Source of the DNA: Chiloscyllium plagiosum
Taxonomy: Eukaryota
DNA: 64,000 nucleotides
Reading direction: 5' to 3'
NCBI RefSeq assembly: GCF_004010195.1
Contig: NC_057752.1
Coordinates: forward strand, 4,896,879-4,960,878
Shown here: positions 1 to 63,399 of the stretch, one piece after another
Position numbering within the stretch: position 1 is the stretch's first letter
Layout of the letters: the number at the start of each line of letters is the position of its first letter
Notes under the pieces: generated by a model
Told to the model about the DNA's origin: nothing
The model's database searches: none
What the model saw: the letters and a program-made list of their open reading frames with translations, nothing else
Made by a program: the position numbers and the translations under genes

Positions 1-120
1 TCCACCCCCAAGGCTCCCAGCCTCATTCTTGATGAAGGGCTTTTGCCCAAAATGTTGATTCTCCTGCTCCTCGGATGCTGCCTGACCTGCTGTGCTTTTA
101 CCGCACCATTCTAATCTAGA
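1..120 (+). mobile_element. Penelope-like element 3' tail with degenerate hammerhead motif
   Basis: tTGATGA-aGGGC-tttt-GCCC-aaaatgtt followed by ctcctgctcctcggatgctgcctgacctgctgtgc, shared with other copies in the window. Confidence 0.65.
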
Positions 121-12787: not shown

Positions 12788-16845
<4,058 letters not shown>

Positions 16846-18269: not shown

Positions 18270-19150
18270 ATCTGGTGTGTTCTGTGGTGGAACTGGTCCT
18301 CCTGGGAGCTGATGTGGAGGAATTGGGAATAAAGGATAGCATTTTTATGGGAGGATGGGTAATCTAGGTAGCTGTGGGAGTCAGTGGGTTTGTAGAAAAT
18401 GTCAGTGCTGAGTCAGTCACTATTGATGGAGACAGAAGTCTGGGAAGAGGAGGGAGGTCGCTGAGATTCATTCCCCTCCCACATGGTTGATGCCCTCCAG
18501 TGCATCTCCTCCACTTCCTGCACCTCTGCCCCCAAACCCCACCCCTCCAACTGCAACAAGGACAGGTGGTCTCCTCTACACTGGGGAGACAGGATGCCTA
18601 CTCAGAGCGCTTCAGAGAACATCTCTGGGACATCCGCACTAACCAACCCCACCGCCCTGTGACTGAACACTTCAACTCCCCCTCCCACTCTGCTGAGGAC
18701 ATGCAGGTCCTTGGCCGCCTCTATCGCCACTCCCTAACCACCTGACGCCTGGAGAAAGAACACCTCATATTCTGCCTCTGGACCCAACAACCCCATGGCC
18801 TTAATGTGGATTTCACCAGTTTCCTCATACTCCCCCCTTTCTCTCTCTTTTTTTTCCCCCCTTATCCTAATTCCTACCTTTCCATCTTCCTTTCCACCTA
18901 TCAGCTCCACCCTCCCCTCTGACCTATCACCTTTACCCCCACATCCATCCATCTATTGTACTCTCAGCTACCTTCCCCAGCCCCACCCCTACATTTCTTC
19001 ACCCCGAGGCTCTTAGCCTCATTCCTGTTGAAGGGCTTTTGCCCGAAACATCGACTATCCTGCTCCTCAGATGCTATCTGACCTGCTGTGCTTTTCCAGC
19101 ACCACACTCTCGACTCTAATCTCCAACATCTGCAGTCCTCACTTTCGCCA
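18270..19150 (+). mobile_element. Penelope-like element remnant (GIY-YIG end plus tail) with inverted 5' segment at about 18270-18465
   Basis: ERFREHLWDIRTNQPHRPVTEHFNSPSH (GIY-YIG C-terminal part); hammerhead-like tail at 19025-19055. Confidence 0.75.
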
Positions 19151-21734
19151 ATAATCCAAATAGCCAGGCTAATACTTTGGGGTTGTGATCTCAAATACAC
19201 CATGCAGCTGGTGGAACTTAAAATCAGTGAATTAAAAAACAGCTGGAATGAAAAGGTAGTCTCAGCAATAGTAGCATGAAACTACCATTGGTTATCAAAG
19301 AAACCATTTGGTTCACTTTTGGGAAAGGAACATAAGAACTAGGAGCAGGAGTAGGCAATTCAGCCCCTCCAGGCTGCTCCACCATTTGATAAGATGATGG
19401 CTGATCTAATATTAGCTTCAAATCCACTTTCCTGCCTGCTCTCCAAAACCCTTCAACCCATTACTAGTTAAAAATCTTTCTCCTCTGTAAATTTACTTAA
19501 TTTCCCAGTTTCCATCATACTGAGGTAGTGAATACTACCTCACTACCTTTTGAGAAAAGTAATTTCTCCACATCGCTTTTCAAATCTGGTCCTCTTTATC
19601 CTAAGACTATGAGCTCTCACTCTAATTGCCCCACATGAGGAAACAGCCTTTCTATATCTTTATGGCATCTTATATGATTTGGCATACATTTGACTCCAGA
19701 CCAGAGCAGTGTGTTCGATTCTTAACTGCCTCTGAAATAGTCTAGTAATCCACTCAGTCTTAGAGCAATTAAGGATGGGCAACAAATGCTTAGCCAGTTT
19801 TCCTCAAATATGAAACAAGGCCTCCTACCAACACTATAATGGACAGATTTATCTTCAACAGGTAGGTTGGAGAGGTCAAATAGGTTTTTCCCTCTTGTTG
19901 GTTCTCTTATCACTTGTCACAAGCCCAATTTGGCAACTGCATCCTTCAGGACTTGGCCAGCTCAGTTAGTAGTGGTGCTACCAAACCAATCATGGTGATG
20001 GACATTGACATCCCCAACAATAAAAGGATTCTGGGTAATCCAAGATGGAGAATGGGAAAAATTTCTGGCTGTAATAGCTGTTCCTTTTTTGAGGTATTTG
20101 AGCTGTTGGAGGTGATTTCCTCGAATTCCAGGAGCAGCAATTACTGTTTTATATGCTGTTGCATTGTTTTGGAACTTTGGAGAAAAAAAAAGTCAAAACA
20201 ACAGCACTTTCAAAAGGGAGAGGATCAGACAAAGGAAGCACATGCTGAGGTCAGGAGAGAGAGAGAGAGAGAAAGAAACCCACATTGCTAACTGACACAG
20301 CAGTGAACCTGCACAGTTACTGCCTTTGCTGTTTGAATTCATGTATTACTGGACATCAGAGTGCATCTGGGAAAATTAACAAACAGTGAACTTCACAACT
20401 AATCTTGGAGGAGCCTGTCTGGGAGAATTCAGAGCACAGGAACAAGTAAGTGAATATTTTAAGCATGACCTTACAGTACATCTGCAGAGTGGGTTATTTC
20501 TTGATTATATGTTTTATTGAGATATGTCTCTTGATTAAACTTAAAATATAAGCCATAAGTATTCATTTAACCTGGAACAGTGTTTGTAGAAGAATAAGAC
20601 AATGCTATTTTCTGGGTCTATGGATTGAAAGAAGCAAAAATGGCCTTTATTAGAGTGATATGCTTTTCTTGTCAGATGTGGGAGTTTAGGGAGAGTTTAT
20701 GGGTTACTGAGGATTATATCTGCAATAAATGTCGGTTGCGAATCCTATCCGATCGAATGGATCGGTTGGAGAGACACTTAGAGGCAATGAGGAATTTACA
20801 AGAGCAAGGGGATTTGATGGATGGCAGTTATAGGAAGTGGGGGGGGGGGGGGGGGAAGTCTCAGATATAGTCACATAGATGGGTTAACTCCAGGAAAGGT
20901 AAGAGAGGCAAGCAGTTCGTGCAAAAGTCTTCTGTGGCTATCCTCATTTCAAACAAGTATGCTAGTTTAGAAAAACTAGGGAGCGATGGATTCTCAGGGG
21001 CATGTAGCACGAACAGCCAAGTTTCTGGTATTGAGACTGGCTCTAATGCAATGAGGGGTACGTCGGCTTCCAAGAGATCAACTGTGTTAGGGGACTCTCT
21101 AGTCCGAGGCACAGACAGACGTTTCTGTGACCAGCAGCGAAAAATCAGAATGATGTTGCTTCCTTGGTGCCAGGATCAAGGATGTCTCAGAGAGGTGTAA
21201 AATGTTCTCAAGGGGGAGAGTGCCCAGCAGGACGTCATTGTACACATTAGAACCAACAACCTAGGAAGGGAAAAGGTTGAGATTCTGAAGGGAGATTACA
21301 GAGGGCTAGGCAGGAATTTAAAAAGGAGGTCCTCAAGAGTAGTAATATCTGGATTTCTCCTGGTGCTACAAGTTAGTGAGGGCAGGAATAGGAAGATAGA
21401 GCAGATGAATGCATGGCTGAGGAGCTGGTGTATGGGAGAAGGATTCACATTTTTGGATCATTGGAAGCTCTTTTGGGGTAGAAGTGACCTGTACAAGAAG
21501 GACTGATTGCACCTAAATTGGAAGGGGGCTAACATACTGGCAGGGAGATTTGCTAGAGCTGCTTGGGAGGATTTAAACTAATAAGGTGGGTGGGTGGGAC
21601 CCAGGGAGATAGTGAGGAAAGAGATCAATCTGAGACTGGTACACTTGAGAACTGAAGCAAGTCAAACAGTCAGGGCAGGCAGGGACAAAGCAGAGAACAA
21701 GGTAGCACTGATAAATTAAACTGCATTTATTTCA

Positions 21735-24607: not shown

Positions 24608-24700
24608 TTGGTAAAAACAATGACTGCAGATGCTGGAAACCAGATTCTGGATTAGTGGTGCTGGAAGAGCACAGCAGTTCAGGCAGCATCCGAGGAGCAG
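24608..24700 (-). mobile_element. Penelope-like tail fragment nested in the CR1 3'UTR
   Basis: Reverse complement matches the tail at 34930-34995; it interrupts CR1 sequence at ggatatctg|...|tctggttggcatgg. Confidence 0.7.
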
Positions 24701-25728: not shown

Positions 25729-25784
25729 TATGTATGAACTTACATTTATCTATGTTCAAGCAATTTACATTGTATGACCCAGCA

Positions 25785-27563: not shown

Positions 27564-30552
<2,989 letters not shown>

Positions 30553-30754
30553 CATGATTTTGACATCACAATATGGTGCTGCTGTAACAGGGAGCTAAGA
30601 TTAAAATGCAAAACATTGAGTTTTAAACAATTGTTTATTGAAGATTGACCAAATTGAATTGGATCTCCCTTTTCCTATTGGGCATTGCATCGTGGTTATG
30701 TCAATGTGTTTGCATTCCATAATTTTAAGCAAATGTTCTGCTGTGCTTTGTCTG

Positions 30755-30878
30755 GGAGAAAGTGAGGACTGCAGATGCTGGAGATCAGTTGTGTGGTGCT
30801 GGAAAAGTACAGCTGGTCAGACAGCATCTGAGCAGGAGAATCAATGTTTTAGGCATAAGCCCTTCATCTGGAATGAGG
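30755..30878 (-). mobile_element. Penelope-like tail fragment inside the probable 3'UTR of gene 2
   Basis: Reverse complement of the tail family; lies between the stop (30552) and AATAAA (31115). Confidence 0.7.
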
Positions 30879-31114
30879 GGCACAGTCTGCCCAATGTTGA
30901 GCCTCTGCTATACTATACTTGTAGTAACTCTTGGAAGTAATATCATGGCTTCAGTTCAGTGAACAGCTAATGTTTAAGTTGCAATGTGTGCTAAATGTAA
31001 TGAGACATAACACTTGTAATATCTGTAGCAATATACATCTGAATTGAGATTGCTATGCAGCACAAAGTAAATTTGTCACAGATGTAACTCTTGTTCTGTC
31101 TTTATGGCATTATC

Positions 31115-31539: not shown

Positions 31540-32215
31540 AAGGAGAGAGTGAAGATTGGCGGTCATTAAAAATGTGTGGTAGTGGAAAAGCACAGCTGGT
31601 CAGGCAGCATCTTAGGAGCCGGAGCGTTGACATTAGGAACAAGTTCCTCATCAGCAATGTGGGGGGGGGGGGGCGTGCTGAGAGATAAATGGGAGAGAAG
31701 AAGGGTGGGGATGTGATGTGTTTTTTTTCTGTGCACCTCCACATACATCTGTGGTCTCCTACATTGGAGAGATAGGATGCCAACTTGTGGAACGTCCCAG
31801 AGAGCATCTTTGGACGTGCACTACACAGCCCCACCACTCCATGGCTGAGCATTTCAACGTTCCCCCTTCACAGACATGCAAGTCCTAGGTTGCCTCTAAT
31901 GCCAAGTTCTAATCACCTGATGTCTGGTGGAAGAATGTCTTGTTTTCTGCCTTTGGACCCTCCAACCACATGGATCAATGCCAATTTCACCAGTTTCTTC
32001 ATCTCTCCTCCCCTGACCTTATCTCAGATTCAACCTTCCAAATCAGCACTGCCCTCTTGAACTGTCCATCACACCCACCTTCATCTACCTATTGTGTTCC
32101 AAGATACCTTCACCCCACCCCAATTCCTAACGAAGAGCCGATGCTCAAAACATCAATTCTCCTTGGATGCAGCCTGATTGGTTGTGCTTTTCCAGCACCA
32201 CACTTTCTGACCCCT
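31540..32215. mobile_element. Head-to-head Penelope-like remnants (minus about 31540-31720, plus about 31720-32215)
   Basis: Tail sequence at both ends in opposite orientations; GIY-YIG remnant in the plus arm. Confidence 0.65.
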
Positions 32216-32979
32216 ATTCAAAAAGGTTAAGTGGACCTGGCTCCTGATTCTATGAAGAGTAAGGTGGTTAAAATTGCAATATGGAAAAATCTTAAGGAGC
32301 CTGACTTGCTAGATATTAAGGAAACTTAAATTTTCAACATGAGGGTCACAGTCCTTGAATTAAGAGGCTGGCCATTTCTGTCAAATGTTTTAAGAATCTC
32401 TGGAATTGTATACCCCTTTTTTTTTGGAAAAAGACAACATGGAGTTAAAGTAGGAAGATTGGTATAACTTGGAATACCATCACAAACCATCCTTAGCAAA
32501 AAGTATTTTCAGGAAGGAACTTTTACTAATGGTTACCTTAACTTCAGGTTGTAAAAATGCTCCCATTGATCCAATCACCTTTAATTTTAAATACCTTGAA
32601 TAGCTATTCTATGGCAAGTGCTGAACTTTAGACAGCAAAGAGAAGTTCCTTGAGACGAACCTTGGGTTTTTAATTTAAAACAAAAACAGGATGTGAGTAT
32701 AGCATTTGTTGCCCTTGAACTAAGTGGCTTGCTCCATCATTTCAGAGAACAATTGAATCAGGGTAGTTCATTGGTCTGGAGACAAATGTATCCTTCCCCA
32801 AAGGACAATAGTTAATTGGCTGGGCATTTTCAACAATCAATAGTAATTCCATGGTCACTATTACTAAATTTCAATTCCAGATTTTAATCAATAAAACACC
32901 AATCTTTTAGCTTCTGTAGTGCGATTGGAATAAACTTCTTCCCCCGGAGCATCAGCCTGGTTGTCTAGACTACTAGGCA

Positions 32980-35000
32980 AAAGAGAGGACTGGAGATTAG
33001 AGTCAAGAGTGTGGTACTGGAAAAGCACAGCTGGTCAGGCAGCATCCGAGGAGCAGGAGAATCGATATTTTGGGCAAACACCCTTCTTCAGGAATGAGGC
33101 TGTGAGCCAAGGAATGGTGAGATAAATGGGAGGGAGGGGTAGGGCTGGGGGAGATTAGCTGAGAATGCATGAGGTGGATGGAGGTGAGGGTAATGGTGAT
33201 AGGTTGGAAAGGAGGGTGGTGCTGAGTTGGAACAGGGGTAAGGTGGGAGGGGAAATGAGGAAACTGGTGAAACTCACATTGATGCCGTGGGGTTGGAGGG
33301 TCCCAAGGCAGAAGATGAGGCATTCTTCTTCCAGGCATCGGGTGGTTAGGGAGTGGTGATGGAGGAGCACCAGGCTCTGCATGTCCTCGGCATTTTTATA
33401 GGAGGCAGGGTGGGAGGAGGTGTAGTCCAGGTAGCCGTGGATGTCGGTGGGTTTGTAGAAGATGTCAGTGTAGAGTCGGTCATCATTGATGGAGATGGAG
33501 AGATCCAGGAAGGGGAGGGAGGTGTTTGAGATGGTCCAGGTTAATTTAAGGTCATGGTGGAATGTGTTGGTGAATTGATGAACTGTTCAACCTCCTCATG
33601 AGAGCACAAGGTGGCGCCGATACAGTCATCAATGTCATGGAGGAAAAGGTGGAGAATGGTGCCGGTGTAACTGCGGAAGATGACTGTTCCATGTAAGAGA
33701 CAGGCATAGCTGGGCCCATGTGGGTGCCCATGGCTACCCCTTTTGTCTGGAGGAAATGGAAGGATTCAAAGGAGAAATTTTTGAGGGTGAGGACCAGTTC
33801 AGCCAAACGAATGAGATTATCAATGGAAGAGTACTTGTGGGGACGTCGGGAGAGGAAGAAATGGAAGCCCTCATCATGGCAGATGGAGGTGTATAGGGAC
33901 TGGATGTCCATGGTGAAGATGAGGTGTTGGGGGCCTTGGGAACGAAAGTCTTGGAGGATGTGGAGGCATAGCTGGTGTCCCAAATATATGTGGGGAGCTC
34001 CTGGACCAGGGGGAATAGGACAGTATCAAGGTATGTGGAGGTGAATTCGGTGGGGCAGGAGCAGGCCGAGACAATGGGTCAGCCGGGGTAGTCAGACTTG
34101 TGAATCTTGGGGAGGAGGTAGAACCGGACGGTGTGGGGTTCTACCTCCTCCCCAAGATTCACAAGTCTGACTACCCCGGCTGACCCATTGTCTCGGCCTG
34201 CTCCTGCCCCACCGAATTCACCTCCACATACCTTGATACTGTCCTATTCCCCCTGGTCCAGGAGCTCCCCACATATATTTGGGACACCAGCTATGCCTCC
34301 ACATCCTCCAAGACTTTCGTTCCCAAGGCCCCCAACACCTCATCTTCACCATGGACATCCAGTCCCTATACACCTCCATCTGCCATGATGAGGGCTTCCA
34401 TTTCTTCCTCTCCCGACGTCCCCACAAGTACTCTTCCATTGATAATCTCATTCGTTTGGCTGAACTGGTCCTCACCCTCAAAAATTTCTCCTTTGAATCC
34501 TTCCATTTCCTCCAGACAAAAGGGGTAGCCATGGGCACCCACATGGGCCCAGCTATGCCTGTCTCTTACATGGAACAGTCATCTTCCGCAGTTACACCGG
34601 CACCATTCTCCACCTTTTCCTCCATGACATTGATGACTGTATGGTCCTGGGCCTCCTTCACCGCCGCTCCCTCACCACCAGACGCCTGGAGGAAGAACGC
34701 CTCATCTTCCGCCTCGGAATATTTCAACCCCAGGGCATCAATGTGGACTTCACCAGTTTCCTCATTTCCCCTTCCCCCACCTCACCCTAGTTCTAAACTT
34801 CCAGCTCAGCAATGTCCCCATGACTTGTCCGGAGTTGTCCTACCTGCATATCTCCTTTTCCACCTATCCACTCCACCCTCTCCTCCCTGACCTATCACCT
34901 TCATCCCCTCCCCCACTCACCCATTGTAAAAGCTGTGCTCTTCCAGCACCACTAATCCAGAATCTGGTTTCCAGCATCTGCAGTCATTGTTTTTACCTCC
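32980..35000. mobile_element. Head-to-head Penelope-like element pair (RT region) with a central palindrome
   Basis: PLE RT motifs FTMDIQSLYTSI and FLQTKGVAMGTHMGP occur on both strands; arms 33620-34125 and 34137-34642. Confidence 0.88.
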
Positions 35001-35435: not shown

Positions 35436-36824
35436 ACTCAAAATGATAAAAGCATACACTGAATGATCTGCATTGAGAGCACACAAGACATCTAAACAAC
35501 AGCAAATTATATAGCTCCTTTAATGTAGAGTTCATAGGAACATTATAGCACAAAGTATGACACATGCTTCAGAAAGTGGTATTAGGACAGATGACTGAAA
35601 GCCTGGTTTAAATGGTAGGTTTTAAGATATCTCTGAAGGGAGAGAAGAGAGAACACAGAATTCCAGAGCTTGTGGTCCAGACAACTGATGTCACAAACAC
35701 GAATGGTAGGTCTATAAATATTGGGAATACTCAACAGGCCATGTTTAGAGCAGTACAGATATCCCAAAGTGTTGTACATTTGTAAATTACAGGGATGGCG
35801 AGGGGTGAGGCTATGCATGGATTTGAAAACAAGGTTGAGAATTTTAAAACCAAGACACTGCTTCGCTGGGAGCAATTGCATATCAGCGAGAACAGGGGTG
35901 ATAGATGAATGCCTTTTCCTGCAAATTAAGACGGGGCAGTTGTGTTTTGGATTACCGCAGGTTTAAGGAGGATGGTGGGTCAGATATAAATACAGTATAA
36001 ATGAATGCAACATTTGGGAGAGTTAAGCAGATGTTTCTGTACACTATGGACGGGTTGGACCGAAGGGTCTGTTTCCATGCTGTACATCTCTCTGACTCTC
36101 TGTCCTCGGCGGCAATAGTACTCGGTTCCTGAGTGTGGGGTTCGGCCACTCATGGGTTCATGTGGCAGGTCCAGCCACATCCACACCAGCTTCATTATTG
36201 TCTTTCCAACTCGGTCATTTCATTTTGGTTTGGTTGCTCTGGGGCGTCCTCCTGTGGGAGGCCGGAGCCCTGTGTATCTTCATCCCCGCTCAATCATGGG
36301 TGGCGGTGTCAGAAGACGAGATGGAATCTGTCAGTTGACTCAGAGCAAGGACCCATCAGTCAATGTCCAGCATTGGAGGAGGTGCGGGACCCCCGCAGTG
36401 TGACGGTCTCCAGCTCGGAAGCGGCTGATGCAAAAGCGATGTGAAAAGGAGCACATTGCCAGGACCCCAGGGACGATGTCAAACTGGATGGGCAGAGAGT
36501 GTGAACTCTATGGAGGGCGGGGGAGATGAACTTTTTAAGCTGTTTCAGTTTTTGTCATATCAATTTAATATTAATTTATTCAATATTTTACCGTTTGTAC
36601 AATTTATTCAGTAATTTATTCTGGAATCCAAGACGGTGCTGAAACGTGGCGGCGGCATTATACACTTTCACTGTACCGAGGTACAAGTGATAATATTAAA
36701 TAAATCGAAGTCTAAAGTGATCATTAAGTAAATCCAGTCCACGAATGTCAGTACAGGACTGGGGTTAGCTAATCTCAGCAGAGTAGCAATATAAAATTGA
36801 ACTGGACCTCCCAATAAATGATCT

Positions 36825-36925
36825 CCACATTCCTGATGAAGGGCTTATATGCTGGAAAGGTCGACTCTCCTGCTCTTCCGATGCTGCTTGACTGACTGCT
36901 TTTCGGGCACTACACTTCTTAACTC
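36825..36925 (+). mobile_element. Penelope-like tail with hammerhead-like motif
   Basis: CTGATGA-aGGGC-ttatat-GCTG-GAAAG-GTC-gac at 36833-36865. Confidence 0.65.
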
Positions 36926-38825: not shown

Positions 38826-39619
38826 TAAATATAGTGGCTCCAACAACAAGTCAGAGGCTAGGAATACTGCAGCAAGTAACTCACCTCATGACTCCCTAAA
38901 TGTTGTCCACTGTTTACAAGGCAGAAGTCAGGAGTATGATGGAATAATCCCCACTTGCCTGGATGGGTGCAGCTCCAACAACACTCAAGAAGCTTGACAC
39001 CATTCAGGTCAAAGCTGCCCAGTTGTTTGGCACTACATCCACAATCATCCACTCTCTCTACTACTGAGACAGAGTACAGCAGTGTGTACGATCTACAAGA
39101 TGCACATCAGAAATTCACCAAAACTTCATAGACAGCACATTCCAAACCCATGGCCACTACCATTTGAAGATAGGTACACAGAAACACCACCATCTGCAAG
39201 TTCTCCTCCAAGGAGAAAGTGAGGGCTGCAGATGCTGGAGATCAGAGCAGATCCTGTTCCTTGGATGCTGCCTGACCTGCTGCGCTTTTCCAGCAACAAG
39301 TTCTTCTCCAACCCAATCATCATCCTGATTTGGAAATATATTGCTGCTCCTTCATCATCGCTGGATCAAAATCCTGGAATTACTTCCCTAACAGCATTAT
39401 GGGTGTACCTAAACCAAATAAACTGCAGCAGATCAAGAAGGCAGCTCAACACCACTTTCTTAAGGACACCTGGAGATGGGCATTGAGCCCATTAGGATTC
39501 ACTCAGCCAGTGAAGCCCACATTCCATGAATTGATTTTTTAAAAAAAGCACTTCAACATCTCACCACTCCTCCGAGGATATCTTCCAAACTTACAACCTC
39601 TAGAAATTAGAAGAAGAAG

Positions 39620-39896: not shown

Positions 39897-41139
39897 AAGA
39901 TGAATAAGAACAGCCTCACATGCAAGTTCCCCTCCAAGCCACACAGTCTGATTTGAAACTAATTGGCCATTACTTAATTATTGCTGGGCCAAAATCCTGG
40001 AACTCCCTCTGTAACAGCACCATGGATGTCCCCAGAACCCAAGAATTGCATAAGTTTAAGAAAGCAATTCACCAGCAACTTCTCTAAGCAGTTAGGGACT
40101 GGCAACAAATACTGGCATAGCCAGTGAGGCCCACAGCCCATGAAGAAAGAAAAAAATGTGGTTATAGAGGAGAGAAATCTGACTGCTCTTATTTACTGGA
40201 AAGTGTTCTCAGGTGGAAAGGAGGATTTAGCTTCCTGAGGACAAACATACCCCCATTTCACTGACACACAATCAAATAATCCATCTGGCACATGAAAAGT
40301 GGCCACTTGGCTTAAAATATTAAAAGTTAACAGCTCCCCTGGGTTTCTGAATGGGTTTAGCAATATTTTATGAGTTGGCCCTTGAGAAAAATATGACACG
40401 TGGAGAGGACCAGCCCTTGAATGACTTTACTGAGTTATTCACTGATACACATGGACCCGTTTCACTTTATCATGAGAGCAGAACATTTGGGCAGTGGTTT
40501 CCAAAGTCCCAATGATCCCCAGTTCTTCTTCCTAAATTTTCCATACCAAGCAACTTAGCACTTAGGGAGCTGTCATGCACAGTTGATCAACTAACTGACA
40601 ACAAATAAAGTGTGACCTCATAGAAAAGCACAGTTTTTCTGATTCACTTTGTCAAAGTACATGAGAACAACTACGGTCCAGGAAACGAAATGGCAAGGAA
40701 AACAAAACAGGCATTTAAAACATTCCACATTTGACTGTTTTAAAGTGATTTCAGCAATTAAACCAATTTTTAACTCTGTTTTCTCTCCAGAGATGCTGCC
40801 AGATCCGCTGAGTTTCTTCAGGGTTCTCTGTCTTTGTTGAATATATTTTAATGTTTCAATGCAAGGTTAAAGGAGATTGTTTTATCTCAAGTGGGGATTT
40901 AGGTCATAGCTTGATTATCTTGTCCAAACACTGCTCTTGTGTGAGCCTCAAGTGTTGAGAAGCCAGCATCTAGCATTTTGATTCCTCCTTTATCTGAAAT
41001 TTGTGCCTAAGAACACATAAATGATTGACATTTTGTATAACATCCAAAGTGGATCCAGTGGCGCAATGCATAACTCATTTGATTCCGAAAGAGAGGATTA
41101 TAGGTTGAACCCCTATCTGGGTTGAGTGTAAACTTTTAG

Positions 41140-41447: not shown

Positions 41448-41588
41448 TTTTAATATACCTTACAGGAACAATTATCAAATTTCAACACCAAGCCACATAA
41501 GTAGATATAGTACAGGTGGGCAACAACCACCTGTAGTGAAGTAGAGTGAAAAACAGCGGTGATGGGCAAGTCATGCCTACCCTTCCCC

Positions 41589-42996: not shown

Positions 42997-45159
<2,163 letters not shown>

Positions 45160-45767: not shown

Positions 45768-48472
45768 TTAAAAATCACAACACCAGCCTATAGTTCCAAC
45801 AGGATGATTTTTGGGAGCACTAGCTTTCAGAACACTACTTTGTGTAGCTCTGGGGCCGGATCATAAGACAGAATTTATAGCACAAGATCATAGTGTCATT
45901 CAACTGAAATGATTGAACAAACCTAAAATAAGTTTTTATCTTGGAATGGGTTGCAGGTTTCAGTTCACATGTAAATCCTAGAACTTCTTTCAAGTCACGT
46001 TCTTGATAACTTTAAGGTTTTAAAAAGTGACATCTCAGCTCAGACAATACACTTAAAAGCATGAGGTTTGAATTTGTCTCTCCCATCTTAAGTCAGACTA
46101 GTTTCACTTACAAAGTAGCAATTTATTAATGAATTGACTGCAGATTGTGCCTTTTGAGCAAAATAGAATGTTTCTGTAAATTATAGTTTCACCCCATAGA
46201 CCTGTGTATACAGAAATGAGTGCTGGTGTAAAACCAGAGGGTGTGCACATGTGTGAAAGTGGGGGGGGGCAAGGTGTATGATGGTTTGTGTGTATGGTGT
46301 AGTGGGGTCACGTGTAGTTGAGGCCTCTGCTCAGTCACTCTCCATTGTTGCAAATCCTGAAGTATGCCTTGGCGCATAGTCAGCTGAAGATCTGATGCTG
46401 AATGTTCCTGACTACAATGTTTCCTAACTGGGAGGGAACACTTTGGTGGTTGGGTGGTGTCCGTTCGTCTGTTGTCATAGCATCTGCTTGGTCTCACCAA
46501 TGTACCATACTGCAGGCAAGGATGCCCTGACCTATGAGACAACACTAGCCAAGTCACATGAGTACCTGCTATGTCCATGGTTAGTGGTGTCTGTGTTGAC
46601 ACTGACATATCTTGCAGTGGTTACCATGACAGGGTTGTATAATGTTGTCCTGAATGCAGGGTGGTTTGCTGCAAACAATGGTCTGGTTTCAGGTTTGGCA
46701 GTTGTTTAAAAGTGACAAGTGGAAGCATAGGGAAGGTCTTGGCGAGGTGCTCATTCTCATTGATATGTTGCAGGATGTAAAGAACATGGTGCAGTTTCTC
46801 TGCTCCCAGAATGACTGGATAAAGGGTACCTGAGTGGTTGCATCCCATGTCGCTTCCTGACGAGGTCATTAGTTTCTTGCTGTGGCACATTGGACCTGGT
46901 GATCAATGAGTTGAGCATCGTACCCTGTTTTTGAGGGCATTCTTGAGCATCTTCAGGTGTCTGTTGTGTTCCTCCTCATCTGAATAGATCCCATGTATGC
47001 GTAGGGGATGGCTGTTTTAATGTTTAGGGTGGAAGCTGAGAAGTACAGCATCATGAGGTTATCTGTGGGTTTGCAGTATTGAGGTGCCTTTCATTCTTGG
47101 AGATTTGTCCAAGAATGAGATTGATACTAAGGAGTAGTCCATGGTAAGTCTGATGGTGGAATGATGATATTACTAGTTTCAGTGATTCCTTGCCATGAGG
47201 CCAGAGGAAGAAGATGTCAATATATCTGGTGTTTCATGCTGTTAAGGCTCACTCGCTCACTGAATTTGCAGTTGCAGAATTATATTCACAGATACAAAAT
47301 AGAATCTTTTTGAGCAAAGTAGAATCTGCAGGGAGTCAATGCATGTAATATTTTATAAATTCCTACTTTAGAAACATAGAGTCATAGTCATAGAGATGTA
47401 CAGCATGGAAACATACCCTTCGGTCCAACCCGTCCATGCCGACCAGATATCCCAACCCAATCTAGTCCCACCTGCCAGCACCCGGCCCATATCCCTCCAA
47501 ACCCTTCCTATTCATATACCCATCCAAATGCTTCTTAAATGTTGCAATTGTACTGGCCTCCACCACTTCCTCTGCCAGCTCATTCCATACCCGTGCCACC
47601 CTCTGTGTGAAAAGGTTGCCCCTTAGGTCTCTTGTAAATCTTTCCCCTCTCACCCTAAACCTATGCCCTCTAGTTCTGGACTCCCTGACCCCAGGGAAAA
47701 GACTTTGCCTACTTACCCTAACCATGCCCCTCATAATTTTGTAAACCTCTATATGGTCACCCCTCCGCCTCCGACACTGCAGGGAACACAGCCCCGGCCT
47801 GTTCAACCTCTCCCTGTAGCTCAAATCCTCCAACCCTGCAACATCCTTGTAAATCTTTTCTGAACCCTGTCAAGTTTCACAACATCTTTCTGCAATATTC
47901 CAACAGTGGCCTAAACGATGTCCTGTACAGCTGCAACATGACATCCCAACTCCTGTACTCAATACTCTGACCAATAAAAGAAAGGTAACCTTCTTCGCTG
48001 TCCACTACACCTCCAATTTTGGTGTCATCTGCAAACCTACTAACTGTACCTCTTATGCTCGCATCCAAGTCATTTATGTAAATGATAAAAAGTAGAGGAC
48101 CCAGCACCAGAACTAATCTGACTCAAGATTGGGATACAAACAGACTTTAAACTCACACCTTTAATGCATTGTCTGAGCTGAGATGTCACTTTTTTTATAT
48201 GAAACTTTTAAGTTATCTCAAGAGTGTGACTTGAAAGAAGTTCTGGGATTTATATATTAATGAACTGAAACCTGCAACCCATTCTAAAAGATGAAAGACT
48301 TAACAGCAATTTAGGTTTGTTCAATATATCATTTCAGTTGTATGACACTAATCTTTTGCTATAAATTCTGTCTTATGATCCTGTTCTACAACTACCTGAT
48401 GGAGCAGCATGCGGAAAGGTAGTGCTTCTAAATAAACCTGTTGGACTATAACTTGATGTTGTGATTTTTAAA
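45768..48472. mobile_element. Penelope-like element (another family) with inverted terminal repeats (about 45768-46180 minus; 47285-48472 plus); RT and GIY-YIG remnants on the minus strand
   Basis: Arms are reverse complements (e.g. gtgacatctcagctcagacaat / attgtctgagctgagatgtcac); hammerhead-like remnants near both outer ends. Confidence 0.75.
47376..48107 (-). mobile_element. CR1 LINE 3' fragment nested in the right arm of the PLE
   Basis: LGPLLFIIYINDLD, FADDTKIGG, RGNLFTQRVARVWNEL; tail ctctatgactatgactctat. Confidence 0.9.
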
Positions 48473-51400
48473 TTCAGGCAAATACAGTGTTGCATGTTTT
48501 CAAAATGAATACCAGAGTAAGGATGTGTAATACAAGTGTACAGGACCTTTTAGTAAGACCATATCAGGAGTATTTGTGCAGTGTTGATCTCTTTGCCTAA
48601 GGAAAAGATGAACTCCTATAAAAGGAATGCAGTTCACCAGGCTGATTCCTGGGATTGGTTTTATTTTTCATTTTTGTGGGATGTGGGTGTTACTGGCTGA
48701 AGCTAAGATGACTGACCTCCAACAACCATGACTATCTTCCTATTCCTGCAGAAGGGCTTATGCCCAAATCGTCGATTCTCCTGTTCCTTGGATGCTGCCT
48801 GACCTGCTGCGCTTTTCCAGCAACACATTTTCAGCTCTATCTTCCTATTTGCCCAGTGTGATTCCAACCAGTGGAGAGTTTGCCCCCAATATCAGTTGAT
48901 TCCAGTTTTGTTAGGGCTCCTTGATACCATACTCAGTCAAATGTGGCCTTGATGTCCAGGGTTAACACTCTTTCACCTCCCCTCTGGAATTCCATACTTT
49001 TGTCCTGCTTAAACCAAGGCTGTAATGAGGTCAGGAGAAGACATCGATTTGGTCCCGTGTTTGAGATTCAAAGAATGACTGGGGTATCTGATTGAAACCT
49101 AAATTTTTCTAACCAGACCAGACATAACGATGTTATCCTGTGACCCATGGCCAGAGTAGGAGAAATTTCTTAATTCAGAAAGTGGTGAACATGTGGAGTT
49201 CTCTACCATTTGTTTCTAACGAGCTTTCTAAAGGATAAAGCCATAAAGGGTTATGGGGTGACTGGGATTATTGCATGGAGATAGAAGATCAGCTGTGATA
49301 ATGTTGAATGATGAGTAAGTTGGATACTCTGAATGGTTGACAACTCCTATTTTCCATGCAATTGTCAATGTATAATTTAAATTATTGACTGGATTGAGTT
49401 GTACTGCCAGTGCACAAGCATAGGGGGCACCACTACCCATTCTGAAAATGGGTATGTACTTCCACTATCCTGCTTCTACCAACATTCATGTAGTTTAAAA
49501 ATTTTACTATTCGTCCTTTTGTGGAAACCAATCAGGTGCATTTTTAACATGTACATGTCTTGATTTTGTATTCTAAAGCAATGATTAAACTTTTAAAAGG
49601 AAGAACTACTGGTTAAATCATCCATTGAGATGTAAGAAAACATCCTTCAGGAAAAAGATAGTTTGTGCCAATTGTTGAGTCAAACTCAGCACAGACTATT
49701 TGGCTTCTCATACTGGCGATGTTGATCCAACTTCTCTGCTGACTTCCCTTATCCTTTATCTCTTCTCTCAAAATGTTTTACCTGCTTTGGTTACAATTGG
49801 CAAGCTATTAACTGAAATGTTTTTGGGTTTTTGTTTTGATTTAACACTAGAATTTAATATGTACAGGAAAGTCTTTTGCAAATATTGTTTAAATACAGAA
49901 ATGTATTCAGATGCCAGGTATGCCATTAGCCAGCAATTAAGCTTTTAATTGCATTTTGACAATTAGGGTAGTTGAGGCCCAATAAGGAAATAGTGTGATA
50001 TTCTCAGGATTCAAAATAAGATCCTTGCTTTGTAAAGGGAAGTGAGCAATTTTCTTACTTTTAGGTCAATCTCAGTATCTTTTGAAAATACCTACTTCCT
50101 CTTAATAGATAGCAAACAGGGAAATGGTGCTGCCTTCAGTTTTAGACTACAAGACATAGGAACAGAATTAGGCTATTCAGCTCTGCCATGGCTTTTTCTC
50201 AAACTCATTTTTCTGCCTTCTTCCAGCAACCCTTGATCCCCTTACCAATCAAGAACATTTTGTTCTAATGATCCAGATGCTGGATGTCATACTTAAGTTT
50301 GATGTATTGCTGTTGGTCCTCACGTCTCTATGCTGAATTTCACAATTCCCAGATAGCACAACATTTAAATCAACAGAAAATGCAAATCCACAATTGCGCC
50401 CTCAGTGCTGTATTTGATGAGAACATGGATGTGGGATAGGGCTACAACATAGTTCTGAGAAACAGTGCTGAGTGCAACTACCCATGAAAAATCAGGACTG
50501 CTGAATTTCTCTTAAAAGATTCCAGTGCATACACTGGAAAATTTTAAGTTGGCGATTTAAGAACATTGTTAATGCATTACATGGTGTAAACATTTCTTGT
50601 TCCTTTGTGCTGAATTTTGACTTTGTAATGATGCAATTTTTTAAAAGATTCCAGTGACTCACGGTATCTTGCAAACGTCCATTCATAGTACAATGAGCCT
50701 TAGCTCATTATTGCTAGGCAATTTTGTCCTACAAGATGTCTCAGCCAAGCTTGATCCGTGCCTCACTCGGACCAAGGGGGTGGGGGGTCCACTGGATAGT
50801 GATGAGCAGCATCAATCATTGCTAATTATGTCCACTGTGGCTGAGGTCTGGTGTAATATATCAATTGCTAACTCGTTTGATGTTTGCTAACATGGCAAAG
50901 AGTCAGAGGTTTACAGCATAGAAACTGACCCTTTGGCCCAACTTGACCATGCTGCTTAGTTTTTGCAATTAATCAGGTCCCATTTGCCTGCATTTGGTCC
51001 ACATCTATCTCATCCATGTACCTGTCCAAAGATCGCCAATAGTTTTTGCGTAACAAACTAAAGCTTTATGAAAATTGTAGCTCCATTAGAGGATTGGATC
51101 CAAGTAAGCAACAGTTCTTTGTTGTAAAATCTGGGCCTCCATTAGTTTCCCCGAGCATTTCAAGGGAAATCAGCAAGCAACCCATAATTTGAAATAAATA
51201 TTCACTCAGGATAAGGAAAAGAACAAATAAGGAAACATTAATACACAGCAACTAAACTAATTCACATGTGGTTAATACATTGAGCTGTCACTTAGTTTTT
51301 TTTGTTTTCATTTAGGTTTCAGTTCCCGCTCCATTGCAATTATCTCAAGTCTGGAGATGGTGAATCATACTGGGGTCATACTGTCCTCCAAGCTCAGCAT

Positions 51401-52169
51401 TCCCTCCACATCCAATTGTAGAATGGTAGTAGACAATTAAACAGCTCACCAAAACAGAAGGAATCTCCACAAATATCCTCATCCTCAATGTTTGGAGAGT
51501 CCAGTGCAAAAGATAAAGCTGAAGCATTTCCAACCATCTTTAACCAGAAGTGCTAATTGGATGTTCCATCCCAACCTACTTCATCCTAGATAGTGATGGC
51601 TCTGACAACATCCCAACTGTCGTTCCACTATAGTTACAATACTGCCATCTATCGGTCTATGTGGTAAATTGCTCTATGTAGTAAATTTCCCAAAGGACTT
51701 ATGCCCGAAACGTCGATTCTCCTGCCATTTGGATGCTGCCTGACCTGCTGTGCTTTTCCAGCACCACAGTCATGACTTTGATCTCCAGCATCTGCAGTCC
51801 TCACTTTTTCCTAATTGTTCTGGTATGTCTTCTCCACAAAAATTACAATTTGGTCAAATACCACTCCATCAATCTACTCTCAATTATCAGCAAAGTGGTG
51901 GAAAGTGTCAACAACAGGGCTATGAAGAGGCGTTTACTCAGCAACAGCTTGCTAATAATCAGGGTTCTATTAGGGCCATTTGGGTTTTGACCTTATTCTA
52001 TACAACCTAAGTCTAAACATCTCTATTAGCTAAATTCCAAAGGGTGACGTGAGTGGACTGCCCTTATCAAGGCAGATATGTGACTTCAATGACCCTGAAA
52101 AAAATTAAAGTCAATGGCATTAAAGGGAAATCTCCTTATTTGTTGGAGTCATACCTAGCACAAAGGGAG

Positions 52170-57029: not shown

Positions 57030-57425
57030 ACTACCATACATCAAGAACATCTCTGAACTGACAGCCAGACTACTGTGACCACTAGGACTTATACAACACT
57101 ACCATTACAGGGCAAGCGACACAAAGAACAGCCAGGGAATTCCTAGAGGCATGGCACTCATCCACAAACTCCATCAACAAACACATCGACCGGGACCCAA
57201 TATACTGGCCACTACAGTGGACAACTGAAACTGACAACCGGAAGCGGCAGGGACAGGCCACTATAAATGCCGGAGGAAACACCACAGAAGCGCTTCACAG
57301 GAGGCTTCCAAGCACCGAGGATGTCACCTAGACAGGGGACGAAACGTTTGCAACAAAAACTTCCAGCTCGGCGAACAGAACCACAGCAACGAGCACCCGA
57401 GCTACAAATCTTCTCTCAAACTTTG
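57030..57425 (+). mobile_element. Penelope-like element 3' end (another family) with hammerhead-like motif
   Basis: GQA.QRTAREFLEAWHS..NSINKHID GIY-YIG end; gca-CcGAGGA-tGTCACC-tagaca-GGGGAC-GAAAC-GTT-tgc. Confidence 0.75.
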
Positions 57426-58257
57426 AGTATGGTCAGATCTTTTTATACTGTAATAACCTCCCACAGTACCTCTCAACAACCCCAACCCCACCTCACCCAC
57501 AACCTCTACCACCCAGAAGTTCAAAGGCATTAAAATAGAAACACCACCTTGAGGTGGTGTTCCTCCAGGTCACACATTATTCTGCCTTGCACATATGCTG
57601 ATGTTCCTTCATTGTCACTGGGGTCAAAATCCTAAAACCCCATCATAGAGTCATACAGCATGGAAACGGACCCTTTGGTCCAACCAGTCCATGCTGAACA
57701 TAATCCCAAACTAGTCCCACCTGCCTGTATCCTTCCAAACCTTTCCTCTTCATGTACTTATCCAAATATCTTTTAGCTGTTGTAATTGTACCCACATCCA
57801 CCACTGGAGCACAACCATGATAAGATCATTGGATCATACAAATAGTAGGTCACTCAGCCTGCTCCAACATTCAATCAGATCATGACAGGGCTATTGTAGT
57901 ACAGTGGTAGTGTCCCTACCTCGGTGCCAGGAAGCCTGCATTCAAGTCCTGCTTGCTCCAGAATTGTGTTATAATATCTCTGAACACATTGATTAGATAA
58001 TTTCCTTAAGATCATGGTTGATGTGATTGTGGCCTTAACTCCACCTTCCTGCCTGTCCCCATAACCCATGGCTCTCTTGTCAATCAAAAACCTGTCCGTC
58101 TCAACCATGAACATATTGAGTAACCCAGTCTCCACTGCTTTCTGTGGAAGAGAATTCCAAACACTAATGACACTGAGAGAAGAACTCCTTTTCATCTCTA
58201 TCTGCAGTGGGACCCTCCATACATTTAAACTCTATCCCTTAGTTCTAGATTCCCTCT

Positions 58258-58352
58258 GAACTGAAAATGTGTTGCTGGAAAAGCGCAGCAGGTCAGGCAG
58301 CATCCAGGGAACAGGAGAATTGACATTTCGGGCATAAGCCCTTCTTCAGGAA
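58258..58352 (-). mobile_element. Penelope-like tail with near-intact hammerhead motif, inserted in a CR1 fragment
   Basis: Reverse strand CTGAAGA-aGGGC-ttat-GCCC-GAAAt-GTC (58349 to 58322). Confidence 0.75.
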
Positions 58353-60559
58353 GATTCCCTCATCAGGGAAACATCCTCTCAAGCCTTTCAAGCCCTTGCA
58401 ATCTGATATGTTTCAATGAGATCACTTCTCATTCTTCTAAACTTTAGTAAGTATATGCTAAACCTGCTGAACCTTTGCTTATAAGACAACTTGTTCATCC
58501 CCAGAATCAGTTTAGTGAACCTTCTTTGAACTGTTACCAATACAAGTACTGTATTTCTGTTCTTAAAACTGTGTTCACAGGATGTGGGTATCACTAGCTG
58601 GGCCAGCATTTATTACCCATCCCTAACTGCCCAGAGAGCAGTTAAGAGTCAACCCCGTTGCTGTGGGTCTGGAGTCACATGTAGGCCAGACCAGGTAAGG
58701 ATGGCAGTTTCCTTCCCTAAAGGACATTAGTGAACCAGATGGGCTTTTACGACAATTGGCAATGGTTACATGGTTGCCATTAGGCTAGCTTTTTATTTTT
58801 CTTCATTGAATTCAAATTAAAATTTCACCATCTGCCAGGGTGGGATTCAACCCCATGTCCCCAGAACACGAACACATGGTTCTGGATTTTGAGACCAGGA
58901 CGATACCACAGTCTCCTCTTAAAGTAAGGAGGCCAAAGTGCACACAAGTGCTGTCTTACCAACGTCCTGTCCGGTTGTAGCAAGACTTTCCTATTTGTAT
59001 ATTCCACCCCAGTAAAGGTCAACACTCCATTTGTCTAACTCATAACTTGCTGTAACTGCATGGTGCCTTCATGTGTTTCATGTACAAAGACACCCAGGAC
59101 ACACCTTATTGCAAACTTCTGCAATATCTCTCCATTCAAATAATATGCTGCTTTTATGTCCTTCCTACCAAAGTCGACAACCTCACACTTCCTCACATTG
59201 TACTCCATCCGTTACTTCTTTTGTCCACTTGCTTAACCTGTTTATATCTTTTTGCAGACTCCTTTTGTAGTCTCTTCAAAACTTGGTTTCCGGCATATGT
59301 TTGTATGGGAAAAGTTTGGCTCTAATACACTCAGTACCTTCATCCAAGTCATTGATGTAGATTGTAAATAGTTGAAGCCCCAACACTGATCCCTGTGGCA
59401 GTCTAGTTACAGTTTGCCCATCTCAGGATGACTAAATTATCCCAATTCTCTATTAGTCAATCCTCTATCCATGCTAAAGTATTAACCACAACAGCAGAAG
59501 CTTTTATTTTCTGCAGTCATCTCTAATATAGATTGGAACAGCTTGAGGCGGGGGGTCCATCATGAGTTCTCAGAGTAATTAGGGATGGATAATAAAAGCT
59601 GCCTCACCAGTATCATTCATACCCCAAGATCAAATTAAAAAACAAAACATTCCCTTCACCATAGAGTCTACCTTTATTTGCATTTCTCCACAAGCCTCAG
59701 GGATGAGGTACAGAAACAACACAAATTGAAGTAATCTAGGATTATGTTCTTAGGCTGCACAGAATATTTTAATTCAATGTCAAAATACACTTATTTGGAT
59801 ATCCAAGAACACTTTGTGATCTAATAGCAAAGTCTGACAAAGCCAAAGTTAATTCCCTCTCTTTTAATGGATGGCTGTCCATGTCAGCCTCCTGCTACCA
59901 GAAATTAGAATCTGAGAGTCAGGTATTGTGTCTAGGTCCATCTCAAAGTGTTGTTGGTGAAGGGATTCTGATAACAATCCTTACCATTGACATATACGAA
60001 AAGTGTAGTGAGATGCTCTATCAGTAGAGAGAATACATGAGTGCTTCAGTTATTCAAGGTGAAAGGAGATCAGAATTTGCTTTGTCTGTGGTGTCCTTCA
60101 CCCACTATCATGGGCAAAATAACCTGCTGACACTCAGTGTCTAGATTAGGTGTTTACCACATGCCCACGCACTCATACGTGACTAGACTTCAGCAAAGGA
60201 GCTAATGTTAAACAACACTGCCATAACCAGCCTCTGTAGCAAATGCCCGAAATGGAGGAGCTGCAGCATTTCTTAACTATGAAAGAAATGGAATGAAAGG
60301 GACAAGAAAATAATTACTCGATGCATTACCAGCTTCTGTAGCAGAAAATGAAATAAATTTGCTCTAGCATTTAAGAAAGACAGCCTTGAATTTCTATGGC
60401 AATTTTCACCATTGTAAAAACTTGCCAAAACACTTCATAGTAAATGAGTTATTTTTGAAGTATGGTCACTGTTGTAATGCAGCAGCCAATGTGTGCACAG
60501 CAAGCTCCCACAAACAGCAATGTGATCAAGATTTGTTAGTTTGCTTTTGTGAGTATATT

Positions 60560-61290
60560 TGAATATAGAGTGTATTCAAAAAGAATGGGTCCCAATGAAC
60601 ACAGTCCGCCTATTTCTGAGCAACAAGCCCACACAAGCAGACAAAACGCATCCAGAAACCAGAGCCACTCTCCCCTACATCAAAGGCATCTCGGAAATGA
60701 CTGCCAGACTACTCAGACCCCTTGGCATCATGGTAGCCCACAACCCCACCAATACACTAAAACAGCAGCTAATGAACTTGAAAGACCCTATACAGACAAT
60801 AAGCATAACTAATGTCATTTACAAAATAATTTGCAAGAACTGTAATAAACACTACATTGGACAAACAGGCAGAAAACTAGTTACCAGGATACATGAACAT
60901 CAGTTAGCCACAAAACAACATGACCCTCTGTCACTAGGATCCTTACATACGGATGAGGAAGGACACCACTTCGACTAGGACAAGCCAAACAGAGACACGC
61001 ATGAGAATTCCGAGAAGCATGGCATTCCAACCAGAACTTGATCAACAAACACATTGACTTGGATCCCATTTACCAGCCCCTGAGAAAAAGAACAGGAAAT
61101 GACATCACCATAGGAAATGGTGTCATCACAGGAAATGACATCACTAACCCAAGGAAACGCAAACATATAAATAGAAAGCAGGCTACACCACCAGTGTTTC
61201 ATTCGGAGGCGCACTGAAGATGTTACCTAGAATGGTGATGAAACATCTGGAAATGAACCTTCCAGCTCAGTGAGCAAACCTACATCCAGG
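60560..61290 (+). mobile_element. Penelope-like element 3' part: GIY-YIG endonuclease plus hammerhead-bearing tail
   Basis: LPYIKGISE...NVIYKIICKNCNKHYIGQTGRKLVTRIHEH; gca-CTGAAGA-tGTTACC-tagaat-GGTGAT-GAAAC-ATC-tg at 61211-61249. Confidence 0.88.
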
Positions 61291-61839
61291 GCCTTTTTGG
61301 TTGGCTGGACAGATAGTGATCAGATTCATGTTCACAGCAAGGAGTTCAATCTGCATTCTGACAGCAATAGACCTGGGGGTCTGCCTTATTACCCTAATTG
61401 TAATTTTTAATAATCAAAGTGCTTAACTGTGATGGCTGAATGATTGCCAAGGACCTGCCTTTGGGTACAGAACTCAAGAAAACTAATTGATTTGTGTTTT
61501 TATTTTTGCCTTCAGCTCCCAAGGCCCAAAGCTCAGAAAGTCTCTCCTCTGAACTCCCTGCCTCTCTAAGACACTCCTTAGAGCTATGCCTTCCATTAAA
61601 CCTTTGGTCACCCGCACTAAAATTTCCCAACCACAATTTGTCTGATACTGCTCCTGTGAAGTGCAGCAGGACTGTTTACCACTTTAACTGTCATGGATAA
61701 ATACAACTTCTTGTTCACGATTTCTGAAGACAATTGTAGAACTGTTAGCTTCAAAACATGGTGAATGAGGGATTCAGCATAACACTAATTGCATACACAA
61801 ATTAATCACAGTATTGTTACATTGTCTAAAGAGGCCATT

Positions 61840-62985: not shown

Positions 62986-63399
62986 GCCTTCATCGGTTCT
63001 AGATATTCTCTCATGTTACACACCTCTGAAGCAGGTAGGACTTGGACCTTGAGGCTTCCTAGCTCAGAGGTAGGGATACTACCACTATACCACAAGAACT
63101 CTCCCTGCACTTGTCCTGTTGCATAGTGCCAAACTCCCGACTTTTCCCCGTAACCTGCCTCCCCCACATTTCCAGGCATTGGTATTGTGAATAACAGCTG
63201 TCCAACCGTGGAATAGGACATTGTTTTTCAAAAAACAGCATCCCAGTTGCAGTATTTTCATAACATCGAAACTGACTTTACTGTAAATAAGGAGATTTAT
63301 TTACCATGGATTGAGACATATTGATTAAACAAATAGTTCTAGACAGTAGTCCACACCAGAGGCAATATAACAAAACACTAAAAACTTGAAGGCTAGTGT

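Follow-up and report, generated by a model that had tools for sequence, protein, structure and literature searches.

What does the hammerhead ribozyme in the terminal repeats of Penelope-like elements (PLEs) do for the element, and from what RNA are the inverted, one-tailed insertions of these retroelements copied? Both points are stated to be open in the published work on which we draw (PMC8557442, PMC11167929; all papers are cited here for those portions of their text that were consulted). They are raised anew by a stretch of 64,000 nucleotides (nt) from the shark Chiloscyllium plagiosum (contig NC_057752.1, positions 4,896,879 to 4,960,878; hereafter the window), in which a first-pass annotation, made from the letters alone, had listed about a dozen dispersed hammerhead copies. 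The ribozyme class, its host elements, the inverted one-tailed layout and a TATA box plus initiator in the repeat are already published (PMC4209133, PMC8557442, PMC3846280). We consider it fairly probable that the motifs are terminal-repeat hammerheads with covariation between lineages, and that their dispersed copies were reverse transcribed from uncut RNA which, in the Neptune families, begins at the motif itself.

Fold, host elements and decay of the hammerheads

A strict descriptor (CTGANGA, 0 to 1 nt, a stem II of at least 3 bp, GAAA and N-U-H; helix I not demanded) matched the window twice, at 58349 on the minus strand and 61214 on the plus strand, compared with 0.15 matches on average, and never more than 2, in 100 dinucleotide shuffles. 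It matched 130 times in a genome sample of 1,356,240 non-N bases (120 evenly spaced 10-kb stretches on large contigs and 20 adjoining the window), compared with 4 to 9 in five shuffles. A homology census of the window counted 19 modules (15 of family A, 2 of C and 2 of B), only 2 of which pass the descriptor, both with CpG-decay lesions. The coordinates of the copies first listed were right and the motif stands far above shuffled sequence, but the number of intact copies had been overstated. None of the 14 Rfam matches in the window (E up to 10) was to a hammerhead. Module density is about 300/Mb in the window and 317/Mb elsewhere, so the window is typical of the genome. Extrapolated genome-wide, these figures give ~780,000 A, 188,000 C and 86,000 B modules (~10^6 footprints) and ~310,000 strict motifs (261,000 to 374,000, a Poisson interval that is too narrow because copies come in pairs); this density of hammerheads may be among the highest in any vertebrate.

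Judged from their sequence, the window motifs are minimal type I hammerheads of the known kind in Penelope-like terminal repeats. Their assignment to several Penelope-like families held, as they lie downstream of GIY-YIG and reverse transcriptase (RT) remnants and have the published minimal architecture (PMC4209133). The family A module sits 3' of an open reading frame (ORF) with RT, a CX4CX2C linker and GIY-YIG (all three in L196, L199 and L209). Family C is similar with a degenerate linker, seen in one case (L106) and weaker than in A, and translations of family B have a C-terminal GIY-YIG without the zinc-finger linker. A C-terminal GIY-YIG plus a CX2-5CxxC linker after the RT is diagnostic of Neptune, Penelope and Poseidon being without the linker (PMC8557442); this linker diagnostic alone makes families A and C Neptune-type and family B Poseidon-type. 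None of the loci fetched contained an intact full-length element. One of them (L223, 740-1500) shows, in the N-terminal part of its family A ORF, a long low-complexity stretch rich in Thr, Pro and Ala, whose length differs between copies.

Lineages were defined from the sequence downstream of the ribozyme, and 13 lineage majorities were compared at nine pair positions. Core bases and pairs are named by the hammerhead numbering convention, and positions along the motif are counted with C3 as +1. The CUGANGA box, the GAAA box and N-U-H are invariant in all 13 majorities, and the extra base after A9 is likewise present in 13 of 13. Helices I, II and III all covary, so that 105 of 117 cells are paired compared with 67.0 after shuffling, a value reached by none of 20000 shuffles; since the shuffle ignores relatedness, this is not a probability. 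With the three deep families only, 23 of 27 cells are paired against 13.7 shuffled (1 of 20000), which would be hard to get from descent alone. Compensatory states include C-G, U-A and A-U at 2.1-1.1, U-A, A-U and C-G at 2.2-1.2, and C-G and G-C at 15.2-16.2. This last pair, in a palindrome without loop III, is C-G in 9 lineages, G-C in 3 and C.A in 1 (A4). The 10.1-11.1 pair is G-C in 10 of 13 lineages and G-U in 3 older or small ones, likely through CpG decay. Within family A, A10.2 pairs off with U11.2 (7/8/5/186, p 1.5e-6), and a 16-row alignment, whose rows are hand-picked copies with intact cores and hence biased towards pairing, is 81.9% paired with 12 cells changed on both sides (0 of 500 shuffles). 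The covariation that the first-pass annotation had proposed as a check is therefore present between lineages and indicates that the fold was selected in the source elements; its conservation suggests that their RNAs were self-cleaving.

Departures from the consensus in single copies amount to 14 to 20% at CpG positions and 1 to 9% at others, and by this pattern the copies are decaying neutrally. Most copies had been described as damaged, which is true of the window; genome-wide, all 11 core bases survive in 139 of the 213 family A copies spanning the core, and in 72 the whole motif is matched. Intact natural copies include L085 8162-8200 (minus strand, with a helix I of 4 bp), L054 5455-5493 (minus) and L064 1860-1899 (plus). 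The fold has its weak point in helix I, with a predicted probability of at most 0.001 in the 138-nt monomer, in line with the low activity reported for the minimal class (PMC4209133). The double-hammerhead fold was not recovered when homodimers were folded for minimum energy. One A1 copy (L054, 5455-5493, minus strand) has a second palindrome, UCGA, centred on the scissile bond, and its best predicted homodimer pairs through UCGA rather than helix III; on this model, such pairing could hold dimers inactive.

Ends of the dispersed copies

In the evenly spaced sample, the 5' ends of family A (n = 307) form a wall at the ribozyme: 120 lie at -12..+3 (7.5/nt), compared with 16 at -59..-13 (0.34/nt) and 42 further up. 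Downstream, 85 fall at +4..+25, 26 at +26..+35 (2.6/nt) and 18 at +36..+60. Family C has 29 of 74 ends at -12..+3. In these counts very short copies are under-detected and old alignments erode. For loci L002-L030, found with a query whose flank is similar to a common junction, the hits at the target were flagged and kept out of the end counts (two escaped in the young-copy and box counts), and the entire set was excluded from the extra-G test described below. The wall is not an alignment artefact, since two other kinds of end place it alike. Solo copies in a target-site duplication (TSD; 23 of 173, control 2) begin at -6..+5 in 19 of those 23 cases, and raw reads of one run (X19) have 90 loose ends with unrelated flanks at -3, together with a roughly tenfold step in depth. 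Among ORF-bearing copies, 13 of the 30 loci examined reach the module: five begin at -11..+10, two further up, about four at +21..+32 (+21, +23, +32), none at +29, and the others further down.

The cut site itself (+28/+29) shows no clear peak of 5' ends, and only 3 of 312 young copies begin at +29. A bump at +29..+35 in young copies faded as loci were added (32 ends at +12..+28 vs 26 at +29..+38, five of them misaligned A4), and a single start at -3 was dropped in favour of a band of starts.

Each of the 12 lineages with long copies keeps a TATA-like box ~30 nt above the wall, though the spacer has diverged; it reads TATAAA in C and B, TATAT in A4 (2 copies only) and TTATCT in A1-A3. The A at -3 stands in what we take to be an initiator-like context. 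In young A1 copies it is preceded by a G in 6 of 7 cases vs 12 of 40 at other ends (p 0.009). These features of the sequence suggest that the Neptune wall is the 5' end of the RNA, so that the transcript likely begins with helix I. Short copies, when checked for resemblance to short interspersed nuclear elements (SINEs), did not reach up to the box and had sequence in common with long ones; their junctions vary, though a few recur.

The 3' ends are bimodal, at ~+90 and +127 in A, +83 and +120 in C, and +75 and +112 in B, the farther class carrying a tail; this agrees with the two internal start sites used by the anole enzyme (PMC11167929). Head-to-head pairs contain 114 of 322 A and 42 of 76 C copies. 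Exactly one arm is tailed in 44 of 49 A and 20 of 21 C pairs of the evenly spaced sample and both arms in none, where about half would be expected (p 2.5e-9 for A, 1e-5 for C); adding other loci gave 50 of 57 with 2 double-tailed. A4 pairs, for which no tail motif was defined, are omitted from these counts. Young pairs lie in one TSD in 27 of 45 cases vs 1 in the control, 24 of the 27 TSDs being 13 to 17 bp long, and the target sites are AT-rich (66% AT). The copies thus bear the hallmarks of endonuclease-containing (EN+) PLEs: 5' truncation, an inverted partner, a one-sided tail of 30 to 40 bp and a TSD. The arms of a pair overlap in sequence, covering the same 5' region twice, and the arm that reaches further 5' may be either one (13 vs 21), which fits two independent complementary DNAs (cDNAs) better than fold-back from a fixed arm.

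Two junctions are worth recording. Three unrelated loci with different TSDs (L146, L093 and L155) have an identical head-to-head junction, with arm ends at +10 and 0, a 2-nt microhomology and either arm tailed, which suggests recurrent end joining. In contigs of another run (X17; L039, 4712-4785), a tail-less 3' end (+91) is joined to the exact cut site (+29) at a depth of 425, far above neighbouring joints. A small tandem family with the cleavage site as its boundary could account for this joint; no such tandem was found in the sampled DNA.

Probable copying from uncut RNA and a proposed role for cleavage

The explanation that we favour has five steps. First, fold and core are kept over the 13 lineages while single copies decay at CpG. 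Second, Neptune copies begin within -12..+3 of C3 and end at ~+90 or +127. Third, the wall would be a transcription start ~30 nt below the TATA-like box, the first four bases of family A then being the 5' strand of helix I. Fourth, reverse transcription would begin at two internal sites, giving inserts of 95 or 130 bp if this happens in the 5' repeat; if both nicked target strands prime, one per site, the cDNAs would be joined head to head. Short copies without the upstream box would be dead on arrival. Because reverse transcription starts 60 to 100 nt downstream of the cut and runs through it, the templates were uncut at the 3' repeat; that copies extend to 30 nt above the cut says the same of the 5' repeat. 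In the fifth and weakest step, argued from anatomy, the ribozyme would be an off-switch: cutting only as a protein-assisted dimer, it would strip the RNA of its capped end and so withdraw it from the template pool. In Poseidon the switch might also remove the likely start codon: in family B, stem II opens with an ATG that precedes the cut by 28 nt and whose frame runs open through the tail, so that cutting would remove it. The last two steps have a parallel in vitro: working on uncut RNA, the anole Poseidon protein starts from two internal sites and extends both strands of the target, and the anole hammerhead cuts only with protein (PMC11167929). More tentatively, the Neptune initiator and ribozyme may be one and the same sequence, with a particle of two RNAs and two enzymes priming both strands from two fixed sites and the ribozyme silent during copying until a protein triggers it, as an off-switch and not as a step of processing; we hold this fuller version to be possible but doubtful. 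If true, the position of the promoter box outside the transcript would explain why only partial tandems can be active.

Several observations weigh against this explanation. Helix I has a U.U mismatch (2.3-1.3) in most A1-A3 lineages, five A lineages being affected. The wall is a band rather than a point (39 of 312 young copies begin at -12..-4), and family B has none, with 0 of 34 ends at -12..+3 and 24 running past -60. The extra G is lacking in A2/A3 (1 of 4); the 6 A1 cases include both arms of a single insertion and three that microhomology or local duplication could explain. RNA reads occur on both strands and look like read-through; in no run did ends of molecules pile up, a pattern that fragmented libraries and contigs would in any case conceal. 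The young copies that begin at +29, and the +29/+30 positions among loose ends and joints of the contig runs, allow for a small cleaved fraction. The arms of a pair usually share their source variant (16 concordant vs 2 discordant), so that one locus supplies both, whether as one RNA molecule or as two. The off-switch, finally, is argued from the anole work (PMC11167929) and from anatomy.

Could the motif instead serve mainly as a signal for RNA dimerisation or protein binding, its helix III palindrome keeping two RNAs in each particle for the priming of both target strands and cleavage being secondary? The palindrome does survive a compensatory switch from ACGU to AGCU, the overlapping arms of pairs require the same 5' region to be copied twice, and the anole protein is a predicted dimer (PMC11167929). 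We nevertheless think this unlikely, given that a 4-bp duplex is weak (predicted -3 to -4 kcal/mol), that the entire catalytic core including N-U-H is kept, beyond what pairing needs, that elements without a hammerhead (Naiad, PMC8557442) make the same inverted, tailed insertions, and that arms are rarely of mixed source.

We give similarly little credence to the idea that the wall marks a nuclease or polymerase-stop site and that each pair results from self-priming by fold-back, a mechanism put forward for rotifer elements. It predicts that one type of arm reaches further 5', which was not seen; family C has the wall without the ATT that family A carries at -3..-1, and the box lies upstream of it in every lineage with long copies. 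This ATT is the motif preferred by the anole endonuclease (PMC11167929), palindromic junctions have been interpreted as self-priming (PMC3846280), and the shared source of the arms and the microhomology of 2 to 3 nt at some junctions would fit the same idea.

In the published model (PMC4209133), tandem or read-through transcripts are cut to unit length by the ribozyme, and the resulting RNAs, possibly circular, serve as templates of transposition. The strongly conserved catalytic core, the few copies that begin at +29 and the deep +91/+29 joint in one contig run speak for it. With 5' ends piled up 30 nt above the cut and 3' ends 60 to 100 nt below it, however, nearly all copies span an uncut site, the +91/+29 tandem is absent from the sampled DNA, and cleavage is dispensable in vitro (PMC11167929), which together make the model rather improbable here. 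That cleavage turns translation on, as for hammerheads in the 5' untranslated regions of fungal and plant RNA viruses, where cap-independent translation follows self-cleavage (PMC13725137), would suit the family A candidate start codon at ~+164, downstream of both tail and cut, but is very hard to credit when cleavage would remove the ATG that family B and the anole Poseidon (PMC11167929) have inside the motif.

Some 10^6 countable footprints (extrapolated) argue against cleaved RNA as the template; they also yield a predicted start site (about -3 in A and -7 in C) and a strict one-tail rule that any reconstituted reaction must reproduce.

The window and comparison with known systems

The features of the window are collected in Table 1; they include one head-to-head pair in a TSD (39212-39298) and two clean solos (58257-58351 and 48745-48837). 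Three copies had been singled out as the best. The letters of 58349-58322 and 61214-61247 are as first written, yet the former has U at 15.2 and A at 1.1, which makes its 2.1-1.1 pair C.A, and the latter has U at 11.1 and A at 16.2. The third (57312-57351) does have the stem I GCA/TGC, with CCGAGGA (U4C) in place of CTGANGA as its first box. Predicted intermolecular helix III energies are -3.1 kcal/mol for ACGU and -3.9 for AGCU, but +1.2 for AUGU (58349) and +1.3 for ACAU (61214); 58349 and 61214, which had been proposed for cleavage assays, are therefore poor test substrates, their palindromes being predicted not to pair. The other listed sites are all homologous and each is damaged in box or stem: C3U with G12 lost at 29, A6U at 19025, G12A at 33065, a broken 10.1-11.1 pair at 36833, and U4A with G12 lost at 30850, where the core begins at 30870. 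Sites 13610 and 51695 begin at +2 and +7, site 45830 has its first box deleted, and 31630, 32127, 35405, 48396 and 48746 are likewise damaged. By their sequence, the copies at these coordinates are probably inactive. Among the stem variants reported, GGGC/GCCC, GAGC/GCTC and the ACGT and AGCT palindromes are real; GGAAC/GTTCC (31654) occurs in 0 of 130 strict matches and is better read as decay than as a true stem II variant.

Table 1. PLE-derived features of the window, numbered from its first base
Feature	Position	Strand	Remarks
Family A1 (Neptune-type) 95 bp solo insertion, tail-less	58257..58351	-	Starts 1-2 nt 5' of C3; core 58349-58322, lesions 15.2, 1.1
10 bp TSD of the 58349 copy	58247..58256		Partner 58352-58361
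Family B3 (Poseidon-type) 5'-truncated copy	60565..61287	+	GIY-YIG remnant (E 2e-4, just short of Pfam cut-off); TATA-like box 61166-61172; hammerhead 61211-61250, lesions 11.1 and 16.2; tail-less end; 5' boundary approximate
Family B1 (Poseidon-type) copy with tail	57093..57428	+	TATA-like box 57262-57268; hammerhead 57312-57351, U4C
Family A1 solo insertion, damaged core	48745..48837	+	13 bp TSD 48732-48744, 48838-48850
Head-to-head family A1 insertion	39212..39298	.	Minus arm 39212-39248 tail-only; plus arm 39252-39298 tail-less, begins +34; ~12 bp TSD with one mismatch (39200-39211, 39300-39311); absent from first-pass list
Long family A copy	32952..34130	-	RT and GIY-YIG remnants; hammerhead at 33091 (G12A); joined head-to-head with plus arm 34137-about 34997, whose hammerhead is deleted
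Family A copy with GIY-YIG remnant and tail	18602..19170	+	Hammerhead at 19025 (A6U)
Family A module, damaged	1..127	+	Core at 29
Family A6 module, begins +2	13611..13696	+	Relative at 35434-35346 (minus)
Short tailed family A module, damaged	30760..30879	-	Core at 30870
Old divergent family A copies, both damaged	31570..32206	.	Cores 31654 (minus), 32127 (plus)
Short family A module	36823..36925	+	Both boxes intact, closing pair of stem II broken
Short tailed family A module, begins +7	51693..51812	+	
Short tailed family A module, begins +36, no core	24622..24700	-	Absent from first-pass list
Family A4 fragment	40770..40821	+	Absent from first-pass list
Family C (second Neptune-like, AGCT palindrome) copy	45768..46181	-	First box deleted
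Family C copy, damaged	48109..48474	+	Core at 48396

The long family A copy overlaps a palindrome of 1,023 bp (33620-34642) made of a Neptune RT fragment, 99.3% self-identical with lesions in common, beyond which the arms are only ~80% alike; it could be an assembly artefact, gene conversion or fold-back repair. Rfam matches to microRNA families at 34038-34225 reflect this palindrome and were set aside. Three segments (15261-16910, 28835-30618 and 42997-45159) are 97 to 100% identical and contain a tubulin exon (Pfam Tubulin, Tubulin_C), presumably of the alpha type judging by its motif; they appear to be a recent tandem gene cluster or an assembly duplication. A dispersed repeat of ~310 bp, probably a SINE, lies at 2225-2837, 5635-5953, 25426-25749, 39619-39880 and 41136-41449, once in direct tandem. 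Pieces of another RT-bearing repeat, similar to long interspersed nuclear elements, occupy 8627-9750, 23116-24607 and 61836-62988 (RVT_1 E 1e-24 at 8881-9450), and a gap of N runs from 21735 to 22330.

The motifs agree with the minimal hammerheads described in metazoan PLEs (Cervera and de la Pena 2014, PMC4209133) in residing in the pseudo-long terminal repeats (pLTRs) of Poseidon and Neptune, with many single or opposite-strand copies; in the extra base between 9 and 10.1, the G10.1-C11.1 pair and the palindromic 15.2-16.2 without loop III; and in forming several families with compensatory changes. They differ in that helix I has 2 to 4 bp and helix II 4 to 6 bp, compared with 4 to 5 and 7 to 8 bp in Schistosoma, and in number, with ~3x10^5 strict motifs (extrapolated, helix I not demanded) compared with ~4,000 in the coelacanth and 9,000 in Xenopus. 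Our literature search, outside which lay subscription journals, Repbase, figures and supplements, found no report of 5' ends fixed at the ribozyme or of such motifs in cartilaginous fishes. Non-LTR retrozymes (PMC7229834; bioRxiv 10.64898/2026.07.22.740005) are likewise short non-coding units with type I hammerheads tied to PLEs. They are described as tandem arrays with canonical hammerheads, whereas the units here keep their parent's sequence but not its upstream box, and occur singly, head to head or, at the most, as partial tandems; retrozyme-type arrays were not seen among them, though no dedicated tandem-repeat search of the sample was made.

Complex insertions of EN+ PLEs (PMC8557442, PMC3846280) share the inverted 5'-truncated pLTR, the one-sided tail, the TSD and a putative TATA box plus initiator in the pLTR. 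In the text consulted they are described case by case, self-priming or endonuclease resolution is invoked, and no distribution of 5' ends relative to the ribozyme is given. Twin priming of L1 (PMC11702581) similarly leaves an inverted insert in one TSD of 12 to 18 bp and an extra G, cap-derived in L1, at full-length 5' ends; its arms, however, are nearly non-overlapping parts of one RNA, whereas here both come from the same 5' region and two fixed sites. The closest likeness is to PAc, the Poseidon of Anolis carolinensis (Frangieh et al. 2024, PMC11167929), which has two classes of 3' end 35 to 40 nt apart (the tail), AT-rich targets, an uncut RNA template and an ATG at the start of stem II, 26 nt before the cut compared with 28 in family B. 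What sets the shark genome apart from PAc is that its abundant families are Neptune-type, with a candidate ATG downstream of the tail and a 5' wall at the ribozyme, and that one-tail pairs could be counted in it at scale.

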